Part shown: positions 922 through 32,000 of the stretch, one piece after another
Numbering within the stretch: position 1 is the stretch's first letter
How the letters are laid out: the number at the start of each line of letters is the position of its first letter
From: Deinococcus radiodurans R1 = ATCC 13939 = DSM 20539
GTDB taxonomy: Bacteria; Deinococcota; Deinococci; Deinococcales; Deinococcaceae
Direction: 5' to 3'
Length of the DNA: 32,000 nucleotides
NCBI RefSeq assembly: GCF_000008565.1
Contig: NC_001263.1
Span: 2,353,347 to 2,385,346, forward strand
Notes under the pieces: model-generated
Told to the model about the DNA's origin: nothing
Database searches by the model: none
Seen by the model: only the letters and a program-made list of their open reading frames with translations
Program-made: the position numbers and the translations under genes

Positions 922-3815
<2,894 letters not shown>

Positions 3816-3828
3816 ATAACGCGGGAGT

Positions 3829-3865
3829 AGAGGGGCCGGGGCCGTTGCTCTGGCCCTCTTTATTT
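3829..3865 (+). terminator. Rho-independent terminator after pheT
   Basis: AGAGG(G)GCC (3829-3837) pairs with GGCCCTCT (3852-3859) with one bulge, followed by TTTATTT. Confidence 0.5.
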
Positions 3866-3878
3866 GCCAGCATCAGTC

Positions 3879-4499
3879 ATGACCGACCTCTCGGCAGCCT
3901 GGGCCGCTTTTGAAGCGCATGACTACGCGCTGGCTGAACGACAGGCCCAGGCGTTGCTGGCTCACCCCGCGACAGCCAGTGGGGCGCGTTTTATGCTGGG
4001 TTACGTCTACGCGTTTATGGACCGCTTTGACGAGGCGCGGGCCAGTTTCCAGGCGTTGCAGCAGCAGGCGCAGAAGTCAGGTGACCACACCGCCGAGCAC
4101 CGCGCGCTGCATCAGGTCGGCATGGTGGAGCGGATGGCGGGTAACTGGGACGCCGCCCGCCGCTGCTTTCTGGAGGAGCGCGAATTGCTCGCCTCGCTGC
4201 CAGAAGACCCTCTGGCGGCTTCCGCCAACGCTTATGAAGTGGCGACGGTAGCGCTGCACTTCGGCGATCTGGCCGGAGCACGGCAGGAATACGAGAAGAG
4301 CCTGGTCTACGCGCAGCAGGCCGACGATCAGGTAGCGATAGCGTGCGCGTTCCGGGGGCTGGGCGACCTCGCTCAGCAGGAGAAGAATTTGCTCGAAGCG
4401 CAGCAGCACTGGCTCAGGGCACGGGACATTTTTGCGGAACTTGAAGATAGTGAAGCCGTGAATGAGCTCATGACGCGACTGAATGGAACAGAGGGCTGA
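3879..4499 (+). CDS. TPR-like repeat protein (about 206 aa)
   Basis: Repeated roughly 34-40-aa helical units with A/Y/G/L spacing (e.g. ARFMLGYVYAFMDRFDEARASFQALQ, ACAFRGLGDLAQQEKNLLEAQQHWLRARDIF). High GC3 in this frame. The start is uncertain (ATG 3879 or TTG 3864) and there is no clear SD. Confidence 0.55.
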   Translation: MTDLSAAWAAFEAHDYALAERQAQALLAHPATASGARFMLGYVYAFMDRFDEARASFQALQQQAQKSGDHTAEHRALHQVGMVERMAGNWDAARRCFLEERELLASLPEDPLAASANAYEVATVALHFGDLAGARQEYEKSLVYAQQADDQVAIACAFRGLGDLAQQEKNLLEAQQHWLRARDIFAELEDSEAVNELMTRLNGTEG

Positions 4500-4511
4500 C
4501 CTACCCCCCAG

Positions 4512-5585
<1,074 letters not shown>

Positions 5586-5607
5586 GTTAGCGGGACTGGC
5601 GCCGCCA

Positions 5608-5955
5608 TCAGCGCAGATCGAGGGTCAGCCGGGGCGTCCGGTCTTGCCCTAGCCGCGACGCCCCCGTCAGCTTGAGGGTTCCTGCCGGAGTGTTGACCGC
5701 GCGCCCCGGCAGCGTCAGTTTCAGGGTGCGGGTCGCACTTCCCTTCGTCACCATCACGCTCGCCGTGACCTGCCCCGCCAGCAGGCAATAAGCGCGGGGC
5801 GGGCAGCGGCCATCGGTCAGGCGCAGCACGGTCACGGTGGCGCCGCCGACTCTTACGGTCTGTCCAACACGCACGGTCAGGGGCGCCGCCGAGGCGAGAG
5901 GCAAGGCGGCCAGAAGCAGCGTGGTCGGCAGCAGGGTGGTCAGCAGATGGTTCAT
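5608..5955 (-). CDS. Small secreted protein of unknown function (115 aa)
   Basis: ATG at 5955 gives MNHLLTTLLPTTLLLAALPLASA-APLTV, a clear Sec signal peptide with an AxA site. Beta-rich, two Cys. It lies 22 nt upstream of aguA on the same strand. Confidence 0.6.
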   Translation of the reverse strand: MNHLLTTLLPTTLLLAALPLASAAPLTVRVGQTVRVGGATVTVLRLTDGRCPPRAYCLLAGQVTASVMVTKGSATRTLKLTLPGRAVNTPAGTLKLTGASRLGQDRTPRLTLDLR

Positions 5956-6024
5956 GTTCGTTCTACGAGCCAGGGCGGGGGATGGTTGCCTGTCGGCGTC
6001 ACAAGAACCCGTGCCACAGGAACC

Positions 6025-6053
6025 CCAAAAGAAAACGCCCCGCTCCACCGGGG
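6025..6053 (-). terminator. Rho-independent terminator after the acyl-CoA dehydrogenase
   Basis: The minus-strand RNA reads CCCCG-GUGGAG-CGGGG followed by CGUUUUCUUUUGG. Confidence 0.5.
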
Positions 6054-6079
6054 AGCAGGGCGCAGGGGGTCTAAAAGAC

Positions 6080-7918
<1,839 letters not shown>

Positions 7919-28401: not shown

Positions 28402-28623
28402 CTAGCGCTCGTTGCCCCGCTTGAAATTGCCGGTGACCCGCGCCATGACCAGTTGCGCTTCGTGGTCACCTAGTCCCTCCACGCGGGCCAGGAACTTCTG
28501 GGCGTCTTTACCCGCCAGTGTGGTCACGGGCCGCCCATACCACGTCACCACGACGCGCCCGTCTTTTTGCTGGCGGTAACTGTAGCGTCCGTCCTCCAGT
28601 TCTCCACGGGCGTCGGTGGGCAT
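28402..28623 (-). CDS. Small conserved hypothetical protein (73 aa)
   Basis: MPTDARGELEDGRYSYRQQKDGRVVVTWYGRPVTTLAGKDAQKFLARVEGLGDHEAQLVMARVTGNFKRGNER. The C-terminal ARVTGNFKRGNER resembles a widely distributed small protein family I recall but cannot name. ATG 28623 is preferred over TTG 28629. Confidence 0.55.
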   Translation of the reverse strand: MPTDARGELEDGRYSYRQQKDGRVVVTWYGRPVTTLAGKDAQKFLARVEGLGDHEAQLVMARVTGNFKRGNER

Positions 28624-28679
28624 GGACAAAACGATAACGGAGACGCCAACCGGACGCCTCCGCCACCCGACTTAGAGAC

Positions 28680-30782
<2,103 letters not shown>

Positions 30783-30803
30783 GGGATTAGCTCCTAGAGA
30801 TAG

Positions 30804-31760
30804 TCAAATTCTTTGTGTTGTAAGTGCCAATTTCCAAAGCATGCCATTGTCGCCTATAACCAGTTCGCGACAAGCCTCATAATCTGCTCTGGTGAGAACT
30901 TCTGTATGTGCTGCACGGTTGCGAAAATCGCGGGTCAGCTTAGTAATCTGAGTGTAGAGTCCATTAATATCACTAATCCAAGATGAACGCGGCCAATCTT
31001 GGAAAAGGTTAAACATTTCTTTTACAACTTGACTAGTTGAGCGACGGCTAATACTGTTCAGCAACGTTTGAAGGAAATGAGCGAATGTTCCCATCTCGGG
31101 TGCTTTACCTTCCCCCGACAAAAATTTAGCTATCCTACCTAGATCTTTATCAGATTTGTCAATGGACAAATTTGTTTCAGAGAGGCGTTTTGAGAGCGGG
31201 TAAAGTATTTTAATAGTTACTTCTGTTTCAAAAGCTTTACACAAGCCAATTATTACTGGCGACCAGTCTAAATCTTCTGGCATGTTCTCTGCTAAATGCT
31301 CAGAAGTAGCTAAAAAACGGAGTGAATTATCAGAAATATGTTGAGCTCTACTGTCTCTAATCTCATATATTTTTTCCAATTCACTGATCTTATTCTTATT
31401 ATAGATCGATAAAAGCAGATCTGCTAACGCTTCTGCCTTTTCACCATCATCTTGATGACCCCTTTTAATTTCCCAGACAGACAGCAAGAATCCGTAACAG
31501 CCATTGCAAAGTGTTTTTTCCCAGTCCCCACGATAAAGAGTTATAAGTTTTGCCTTTTTCTCTTCGCCACAGCGAAAGCACTGAAAAGCGGTGGCGAGAC
31601 TTAAACGATATTGCTGTAGAGGGCCCCGTGTAGGATACGTCTTGACTATCTCTTCAAAACTGGGCTTACGCATTCTCTCCTCGCTTTCGCTCAGCTGGAA
31701 TAAGGAAGGGCTTACATCCAATAAATATGGGCCACAAGCCTTTCTCTGCTTATGGCCCAT
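30804..31760 (-). CDS. Low-GC foreign gene: zinc-ribbon plus HEPN-like (R-x4-H) domain protein (318 aa; 289 aa if it starts at ATG 31673)
   Basis: It is the only long ORF in a roughly 40% GC block and uses A/T-rich codons. The zinc ribbon is CFRCG-x20-CNGC. The helical C-terminal domain ends in TRDFRNRAAHTEVLTRADYEA (R-N-x3-H, HEPN-like). ATG 31673 has a GAGGAG SD. ATG 31760 has none and sits inside a hairpin. Confidence 0.7.
   Translation of the reverse strand: MGHKQRKACGPYLLDVSPSLFQLSESEERMRKPSFEEIVKTYPTRGPLQQYRLSLATAFQCFRCGEEKKAKLITLYRGDWEKTLCNGCYGFLLSVWEIKRGHQDDGEKAEALADLLLSIYNKNKISELEKIYEIRDSRAQHISDNSLRFLATSEHLAENMPEDLDWSPVIIGLCKAFETEVTIKILYPLSKRLSETNLSIDKSDKDLGRIAKFLSGEGKAPEMGTFAHFLQTLLNSISRRSTSQVVKEMFNLFQDWPRSSWISDINGLYTQITKLTRDFRNRAAHTEVLTRADYEACRELVIGDNGMLWKLALTTQRI
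31727..31760 (-). terminator. Terminator-like hairpin immediately after paaD
   Basis: The minus-strand RNA reads AUGGGCCAUAAG, a 10-nt loop, CUUGUGGCCCAU (12 bp including one G-U), followed by AUUUAUU. On the plus strand the same position is a C-A mismatch. Confidence 0.4.
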
Positions 31761-31771
31761 AACTTATAGCT

Positions 31772-32000
<229 letters not shown>

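Follow-up and report, generated by a model that had tools for sequence, protein, structure and literature searches.

The union of a zinc-binding module with a HEPN-type domain in a single bacterial protein has a characterized precedent in RAZR (ring-activated zinc-finger RNase), formerly PD-T7-4 and labelled "Zn finger-HEPN" in 2022 (PMC9519451), a 220-amino-acid (aa) protein composed of a zinc finger and DUF4145 that forms assemblies on rings of phage portal or recombinase protein and, after this phage-triggered assembly, cleaves RNA non-specifically (PMC13017515, 2026). A census published in 2013 listed zinc-ribbon fusions of DUF4145-like and Abi2/Swt1-like HEPN domains, Npun_R5629 representing the Abi2/Swt1 clade, and set out the hallmarks of HEPN domains: an Rx4-6H motif whose arginine is directly followed by a polar residue (N, D, or H), placement of this motif where a helix ends and passes into the next loop, an acidic residue upstream of it, typically within Ex3[KR], and frequent inserts between helices 2 and 3; the fusion repertoire included the zinc ribbon, sigma-type helix-turn-helix (HTH) domains, TPR repeats, and SF-I helicases (PMC3710099). 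Here, we describe a gene of Deinococcus radiodurans R1 that lies between paaD and paaZ in the phenylacetate (paa) operon, within a stretch of 32,000 nucleotides (NC_001263.1, positions 2,353,347 to 2,385,346; "the window," to which positions refer unless another source is given), and whose 289-aa product combines an N-terminal zinc ribbon with an all-helical C-terminal domain.

With moderate confidence, we consider this gene to be a horizontally acquired, stand-alone defense-type gene whose product would act as a one-protein abortive-infection HEPN-like RNase. The initial annotation, made from the DNA letters, recognized no named system with this architecture; RAZR/PD-T7-4 and the zinc-ribbon fusions of the 2013 census precede it, and the architecture class is thus already known, the family itself being the part without a Pfam, NCBIfam, or PADLOC model. 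RAZR and Npun_R5629 were compared with the family by published description.

RESULTS

A foreign gene in a variable slot of the paa operon

The gene has a GC content of 0.408 against 0.667 for the remainder of the window, and a GC content at third codon positions (GC3) of 0.348 against 0.84-0.86 in neighboring genes; it is the sole low-GC stretch of the 32 kb, all other 600-bp bins having a GC content of at least 0.585. We read the loci of close PaaZ homologues, in which paaABCD and paaZ were syntenic throughout, and found that the content of the paaD-paaZ gap differs in each of five Deinococcus lineages, three of the five holding low-GC genes. The gap of D. radiodurans measures 989 nt (GC 0.415) and contains the zinc-ribbon/HEPN-like gene; that of Deinococcus sp. 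PESE-13, whose PaaZ is 98% identical, measures 1196 nt (GC 0.436) and contains an unrelated 340-aa gene on the opposite strand; and that of D. wulumuqiensis (PaaZ 90% identical) measures 788 nt (GC 0.435) and contains a co-oriented 239-aa gene. In D. geothermalis, the 778-nt gap (GC 0.61) is occupied by a Peptidase_M24 gene on the opposite strand, and in D. metallilatus the 460 nt (GC 0.60) consist of unrelated sequence with no called gene.

Comparison of the two junctions by blastn showed that the flanks of D. radiodurans and PESE-13 share approximately 94% identical DNA, with homology ending 42 nt past the paaD stop codon (at about 31729) and restarting 3 nt before the paaZ ATG (at about 30786); the cassette between these points is without homology to the PESE-13 genome. 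On the left side of the slot, sharing is limited to a hairpin and the short leader CCAGC(C)TGAG, and the D. wulumuqiensis gene begins at the corresponding point behind the shared leader. No integrase, transposase, or repeat was seen to mark the D. radiodurans cassette. Because its composition is unameliorated and different genes stand at the same site in sister genomes, we regard the gene as foreign to the paa pathway; it is, by these genome comparisons, a recent replacement at a recombination-prone site and not a paa component. The initial annotation had depicted a gene-sized, low-GC island inside the operon and taken it for a recent single-gene insert, and both points are borne out by the composition and by the junction in the other Deinococcus genomes examined, whose paa operons lack the gene. 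Three unrelated low-GC genes in one slot of near-identical genomes offer a compact natural case of genes being exchanged at one fixed site with no visible recombinase.

The two other low-GC occupants were also inspected. The PESE-13 gene (locus L088, positions 2900-3922; 340 aa, GC 0.43) has no Pfam match on record and no PDB sequence match. The D. wulumuqiensis gene (locus L089, positions 3269-3988; 239 aa, GC 0.42) belongs to a family of 15 proteins, all organism-named members of which come from Deinococcus; this family has its own invariant R-N-x3-H, together with an upstream DAE and E, all within the N-terminal ~110 residues, after which comes a CBS pair. Profile comparison of this RNxxxH-plus-CBS family with the D. 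radiodurans family by hhalign gave an alignment confined to the motif, and the slot therefore holds two different RNxxxH proteins in sister species. Directly downstream of paaZ lies an ORF (open reading frame) of 73-75 aa without a Pfam match (28402-28629, minus strand; locus L080, positions 7160-7381). This ORF has been called as a gene in D. radiodurans, in PESE-13, and in D. wulumuqiensis, and a DDE_Tnp_1 transposase gene separates it from paaZ in one assembly of the last-named species (L089).

A widespread family in restriction-modification, prophage, and mobile contexts

A search of 5.8 billion clusters with the full protein returned 758 relatives, nearly all of ~292 aa, unnamed, and 48-66% identical to the query; full-length members are approximately 50% identical across phyla. 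In a survey of one genome per species, 60 full-length copies were located, distributed over Cyanobacteriota, Alpha-, Beta-, and Gammaproteobacteria, Myxococcota, Acidobacteriota, Latescibacterota, Chloroflexota, Actinomycetota, Bacteroidota, Verrucomicrobiota, and Spirochaetia, and the GC content of these copies was usually below that of the flanking DNA (median difference, -0.06; lowest, -0.19). Clustering of four genes on each side of the 60 loci revealed no conserved neighbor; given this result and the low GC content, we conclude that the gene moves, and presumably works, alone. The D. radiodurans gene likewise adjoins no partner gene, its flanks being paaD and paaZ, so that the earlier description of it as a stand-alone gene is upheld. 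A two-gene toxin-antitoxin (TA) arrangement was considered and rejected in view of these flanks and of the 60 loci. Several genomes carry shortened or frameshifted copies (loci L061 to L066), in which the N-terminal ~90-130 residues are followed by a stop or a change of frame; these broken copies suggest frequent inactivation, as expected of a potentially toxic gene.

The surroundings of the relatives were characterized from about 10 annotated loci and an aggregate scan of neighbors, which give a descriptive picture and not a calibrated enrichment. The closest homologues, at 66% identity, are encoded between the hsdS and hsdM genes of type I restriction-modification (R-M) operons, and genes in the vicinity specify a nuclease of the Mrr type, an HNH protein, and a phage integrase. 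The copy of Cereibacter ovatus is located within a prophage or gene transfer agent-like structural module, between head-tail and tail-tube genes, which is a typical moron position. Of the further copies, one adjoins an integrase fragment, another is surrounded by integrases, a transposase, and a PIN/FitA pair, a third stands at the margin of an ERF/YqaJ prophage region, and a fourth is located on a Bradyrhizobium plasmid, in a stretch rich in insertion sequences (IS). Pfam families represented among 115 immediate neighbors include DEAD/ResIII, McrBC, DUF1156, DNA methylases, and the BsuBI/PstI restriction endonuclease, as well as KAP NTPase, DDE transposases, DUF2326, and HEPN. None of the homologous loci examined had a paa context. 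Our literature search found no paper that mentions DUF7685, the Pfam family that the zinc ribbon weakly matches, and no description of the family or of the Deinococcus gene.

A C-terminal domain with a candidate HEPN active site

The C-terminal domain was modeled with AlphaFold2 (AF2) as part of the full protein, from 30 sequences (predicted local distance difference test [pLDDT] score, 86.7; predicted template modeling [pTM] score, 0.73), and alone (pLDDT, 94.3; pTM, 0.88). An exhaustive hidden Markov model (HMM) search of 1.84 billion representatives yielded 397 representatives of the domain at an E value of ≤1e-3. Across 65 sequences (64 of them homologues) reaching down to ~20% identity, many of which are without the zinc ribbon, E149, R251, N252, and H256 were the only invariant residues; in a 43-sequence alignment that added a helicase fusion, the same four were still invariant, together with G195. 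E149 and the R, N, and H of the motif are also invariant in 30 close sequences (29 homologues and the D. radiodurans protein), with E151 and R/K155 nearly so. In both AF2 models, the motif ends a helix (236-255) that is succeeded by a loop (256-261) and a further helix (262-273), E151-x3-[R/K]155 falls in helix 138-163, and a helical insert of ~70 residues occupies 164-235. The predicted protein thus presents all of the sequence and topology hallmarks of the 2013 census, the topology being that of the predicted structure.

The domain also occurs in longer proteins that have, in place of the ribbon, a DksA/TraR zinc finger, IF2_N, or Sigma70_r4, and in fusions to TPR repeats and to a superfamily 1 (SF1) helicase, a repertoire that overlaps that listed for HEPN (PMC3710099). 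A plasmid of Chondrinema litorale (NZ_CP111062.1; locus L085, positions 2194-6672) encodes a 1,493-aa SF1 (RecD-like) helicase with the same E...YRNKAAH domain. Genes for a Nudix-type hydrolase and a DEAD/DEAH helicase come next, a WYL-domain gene is close by, and the locus looks like an uncharacterized multigene conflict system.

Sub-threshold matches to HEPN-clan profiles comprised Abi_2 (E value, 0.019, over the C-terminal motif region of the profile) and DUF4145 (E values, 0.064 and 0.2), and both proteins giving these matches carry FRNPAAH within or beside the matched stretches. Hypoth_Ymh (E value, 0.013), the PADLOC model Cas13-ApeA (0.017), and phrog_2158, "abortive infection" (0.012; weakly matched in 3 of the 30 close members), were likewise below threshold. 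We take Hypoth_Ymh, ApeA, and Abi_2 to belong to the HEPN clan, in part on the basis of the 2013 census. For a direct comparison of profiles, we used a shallow DUF4145 alignment of six sequences, which were fetched by a degenerate pattern for R-K-L-G-N-x-A-A-H, checked by their source names, and include two zinc-ribbon-plus-DUF4145 proteins so named by NCBI. Against this shallow alignment, hhalign aligned 19 columns (P, 0.03-0.05) with the motifs in register, N falling on N, AAH on AAH, semiconserved R248 on the DUF4145 arginine, and R251 on glycine. Against E. coli RnlA, as a single sequence, hhalign found nothing, and a regular-expression scan of all fetched loci found no DUF4145- or Abi2-type motifs. 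We conclude that the C-terminal domain is HEPN-like by its active-site signature and predicted topology and that membership of the superfamily is likely; of the HEPN assignment made earlier, the motif and the topology stand, and a significant profile or fold match does not accompany them. The arginine and histidine on which that assignment turned are invariant at both depths of alignment, and the neighborhoods of homologues contain the R-M operons, prophage, and integrase, IS, and TA islands listed above.

The DUF4145 pattern scan also returned RAZR-like proteins on IMG/VR contigs (loci L121 and L124; proteins P0405 and P0408), one of 244 aa from Brevibacillus and one of 216 aa from Clostridium intestinale, both with an N-terminal CxxC...CxxC ribbon and DUF4145 (RKLGNxAAH), and DUF4145 fused N-terminally to type I HsdR (L115) and to SF1 helicases of ~910 aa (L116 and L118 to L120).

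A conserved zinc-ribbon module

The N-terminal CxxC-x20-CxxC module has model strands at residues 9-55, and its four cysteines are invariant in the 30 close sequences. Residues 7-62 are homologous to residues 88-144, in the C-terminal half, of Trypanosoma brucei mt-LAF7 (7aoi_XA/6yxx_EG; profile E value, 1.8e-7), and Foldseek matched the ribbon to 6yxx_EG with a probability of 1.00; the zinc ribbon proposed from the first reading of the DNA is therefore real. In the mitoribosome assembly intermediate, mt-LAF7 is situated on unfolded rRNA H41/42 at the base of the L7/L12 stalk (PMC7957421). It is a eukaryotic mitoribosome assembly factor (6YXX/7AOI) without a HEPN-like domain and has the ribbon module alone in common with the present family. 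The ribbon matches phrog_26807 in 30 of 30 members and Pfam DUF7685, weakly, in 23 of 30.

The ribbon also exists on its own, as proteins of 55-90 aa, in Mycobacterium, a Nitrosopumilus metagenome-assembled genome, Planctomycetes, Bacteroidetes, and several mycobacteriophage clusters; a phage example is found at positions 72947-73087 of MH697587.1 (phrog_26807). These lone ribbon proteins may serve as decoys for the full-length proteins or may regulate them.

Gene start, hairpin, and promoter-like sites

The stop codon of paaD occupies 31772-31774, the paaZ ATG lies at 30782, and the gene stands between them. A minus-strand ORF of 30804-31760 is present, as annotated initially, with a longest reading of 318 aa; its product is instead predicted to be the 289-aa protein that starts at 31673, since all homologues begin at M30 of the longer ORF, and this start was chosen in two of three gene calls of other D. 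radiodurans assemblies. The 318-aa reading was rejected on these homologue starts, on the GGAGAG Shine-Dalgarno sequence at M30, and on the burial of the upstream ATG (31760) in a hairpin. Pfam, NCBIfam, and PADLOC gave nothing significant for the 289-aa protein, and Rfam gave no RNA family within the window. Coordinates are collected in Table 1.

Table 1. Features of the paaD-paaZ slot of D. radiodurans and of the gene that occupies it (positions in the 32,000-nt window)
Feature	Coordinates	Strand	Details or basis
Coding sequence of the 289-aa protein	30804..31673	minus	Stop codon 30804-30806; start ATG 31671-31673
GGAGAG Shine-Dalgarno of the gene	31675..31680	minus	Read from sequence, 1 nt upstream of the ATG
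N-terminal beta-rich zinc-ribbon module, residues 1-65	31479..31673	minus	Cys32, 35, 56, 59
Helical linker, residues 66-130	31284..31478	minus	AF2; lowest confidence of the protein, pLDDT 53-90
All-alpha C-terminal domain, residues 131-289, putative HEPN-like RNase domain	30807..31283	minus	AF2
E149-x-E151-x3-K155, first long helix of the domain	31209..31229	minus	Alignments
R251-N-R-A-A-H256, candidate catalytic Rx4H motif	30906..30923	minus	Alignments and models
Replaced cassette, without homology to the PESE-13 genome	30786..31729	.	blastn of junctions
Terminator-like hairpin directly after the paaD stop	31726..31761	minus	14-bp stem, 8-nt loop, U-rich tail
AGGAG Shine-Dalgarno of paaZ	30791..30795	minus	Within the 21-nt spacer after the gene's stop; read from sequence

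The gene had initially been assumed simply to ride on transcription of the host operon, which is doubtful given the terminator-like hairpin between paaD and the gene (fold z score, -3.5). A 33-nt stretch of this hairpin is conserved in PESE-13, which is without the gene, and is not conserved in D. wulumuqiensis; the hairpin belongs to the host side of the junction. It could attenuate read-through from paaABCD, and transcription into paaZ, and may mark a recombination boundary. Promoter-like hexamers, TTAGCA-18-TATAAT (10/12), are present on the coding strand at 31427-31398, inside the A/T-rich gene, and the A/T-rich insert may, to judge by such sites, supply a new promoter for paaZ.

DISCUSSION

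We suggest that the ribbon module of the D. radiodurans protein would serve as a sensing or docking part that controls the C-terminal domain and that the protein, if the D. radiodurans copy is expressed, would be kept inactive in uninfected cells, by analogy with RAZR/PD-T7-4 and Abi2-type proteins. Infection would switch it on through the ribbon; probably, the protein would change its oligomeric state and so complete a composite active site of the HEPN type, which would be formed from E149, E151x3[K/R], and R251-N252-x3-H256, with dimerization needed as in HEPN enzymes generally. Metal-independent cutting of RNA would follow and lead to a stop in translation, growth arrest, and an aborted infection.

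Several results weigh against this interpretation. The C-terminal domain has no significant profile match to any HEPN family, the hits in Pfam, NCBIfam, and PADLOC all being below threshold; three successively broader HMM profiles retrieved no PDB sequence for the domain; Foldseek searches of PDB and BFVD with the full and C-terminal models returned, beyond the mt-LAF7 match of the ribbon, nothing at an E value of <1, HEPN toxins and RnlA appearing only at E values of 1.5-9 among unrelated helical proteins; and the hhalign comparisons with DUF4145, with RnlA, and with the family from D. wulumuqiensis covered at most 19-28 columns at P values of at least 0.03. Conservation is highest in the ribbon, with a mean pairwise identity of 68% compared with 56% for the C-terminal domain, which is unlike a fast-evolving phage sensor. 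The family is rare on mobile replicons, with three records in PLSDB and three full-length copies in IMG/VR, and no full-length copy was present in the GenBank phage set. Finally, the hairpin stands upstream of the gene, for which no convincing promoter of its own was found.

These points bear on what the ribbon does as much as on what the C-terminal domain is. That the ribbon docks on the gene expression machinery of the host and is not a sensor of a phage protein is a rather unlikely but live alternative, in which a HEPN-like RNase parked on the ribosome or RNA polymerase (RNAP) would fire when infection perturbs that machinery. It is the conservation of the ribbon, where variability might have been expected of a sensor, the contact of its homologue mt-LAF7 with rRNA, the replacement of the ribbon by DksA/TraR, sigma, and IF2_N modules that bind RNAP or nucleic acid, and the lone mycobacteriophage ribbons that bring docking into consideration; the phage-encoded lone ribbons would then be decoys that displace the RNase. 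A separate part of this alternative is that the paaD-paaZ gap would be a hotspot of defense-gene exchange inside a catabolic operon. Much of the same evidence can be read without a nuclease at all, as describing a regulator whose ribbon, or in other architectures Sigma70_r4, a DksA/TraR finger, or IF2_N, would dock on RNAP, the ribosome, or DNA, the helical domain serving for ligand binding or protein interaction. We hold such a regulator to be unlikely: the swapped N-terminal modules are all small and bind nucleic acid or RNAP, the ribbon is homologous to part of an rRNA-bound protein, and neither fold nor profile searches matched a nuclease significantly, yet an invariant glutamate with R-N-x3-H is a catalytic pattern and not that of a binding surface, HEPN nucleases, too, are typically found fused to HTH domains and zinc ribbons (PMC3710099), and the SF1 helicase fusion in its Nudix/DEAD/WYL neighborhood points to conflict systems.

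The mobility of the family admits a further reading, that of a solitary HEPN-like RNase which, as a selfish toxin of the addiction type or as a factor in competition among mobile elements, would benefit the element that carries it and would not be a dedicated anti-phage system; in D. radiodurans, the gene would be a passenger left stranded. The association with integrases, IS elements, TA pairs, and plasmids would fit, as would the several shortened or frameshifted copies, the low-GC composition, and the patchy distribution across phyla; we nevertheless think this improbable, given that there is no cognate antitoxin or conserved neighbor, that full-length members are well conserved, and that positions embedded in R-M operons or typical of prophage morons are those of defense genes. 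The proposal that the gene encodes a genuine accessory protein of phenylacetate catabolism with an odd composition has in its favor the co-orientation with the operon, the distance of 21 nt from paaZ with the paaZ Shine-Dalgarno sequence in the spacer, and the presence of the gene in every D. radiodurans assembly examined (the locus is also found on the chromosomes CP031500.1 and CP150840.1); it is effectively refuted by the comparative data, since the slot holds unrelated sequence in four other Deinococcus lineages, homologues are found in non-paa contexts, and a GC3 of 0.35 is set in a genome at 0.85. We retain the stand-alone abortive-infection RNase as the interpretation that we favor. To our knowledge, the phage defenses of D. 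radiodurans have been little studied, and the family, for which Pfam, NCBIfam, and PADLOC hold no model, is invisible to current defense annotation.

Comparison with known systems

The toxin-antitoxin HEPN RNases HEPN-MNT (HepT/MntA) and RnlA/RnlB share with the family the Rx4H signature on an all-alpha domain, and HEPN structures (7ae6/7ae8 and 7aex/6y2s/4i8o) are among the top non-significant Foldseek matches; these systems have an antitoxin or MNT partner, and the D. radiodurans gene is without one. Abi2/AbiD/AbiF (PF07751) and Swt1-like proteins have in common with the family the R-N-x-x-A-H form of the motif and embedding in R-M operons; the best score with the Abi_2 Pfam profile was 15.7 against a gathering score of 25.6 bits, in 1 of the 65 members.

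RAZR is similar in layout and is the best-studied analogue. Like RAZR, the D. radiodurans protein would act as a single protein with no partner gene, the family is found on or near mobile elements, and, at the level of domain class, an N-terminal Cys4 ribbon is followed by a linker and a divergent HEPN-type helical domain at the C terminus. The arginine and histidine of RAZR are essential, and R251 and H256 are invariant in the aligned members of the present family, where they may be the counterparts; the N-x-A-A-H core of the family motif is, moreover, in register with that of DUF4145, the domain type at the C terminus of RAZR. The motif is spaced R-x4-H in the family and R146-x7-H154 in RAZR; the protein is of 289 aa compared with 220 aa and has an additional helical linker of 65 residues and the ~70-residue insert; and its C-x2-C-x20-C-x2-C ribbon, which is DUF7685/mt-LAF7-like, is a different module from that of RAZR. 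In profile searches, DUF4145 (PF13643) had no match at an E value of ≤1 in the 30 close members and reached 0.06-0.2 in two of nine divergent members scanned singly; PADLOC assigned no family to the protein and gave no PD-T7-4 match at an E value of ≤1 in the 65 members, the presence of that model in our copy being unconfirmed; and no RAZR chain (9Y9C/9Y6U) was matched by the C-terminal domain in PDB sequence searches, in a copy whose inclusion of these chains is likewise unconfirmed. By these searches, the family appears not to be detectably related to RAZR. If the family is an active RNase, it would represent a second, independent lineage of one-protein immune effectors of the zinc-ribbon/HEPN type beside RAZR, and since the ribbon is the most conserved part of this family whereas the zinc-finger domain of RAZR is its variable determinant of specificity, comparison of the two would show whether they share an activation logic or merely a layout.

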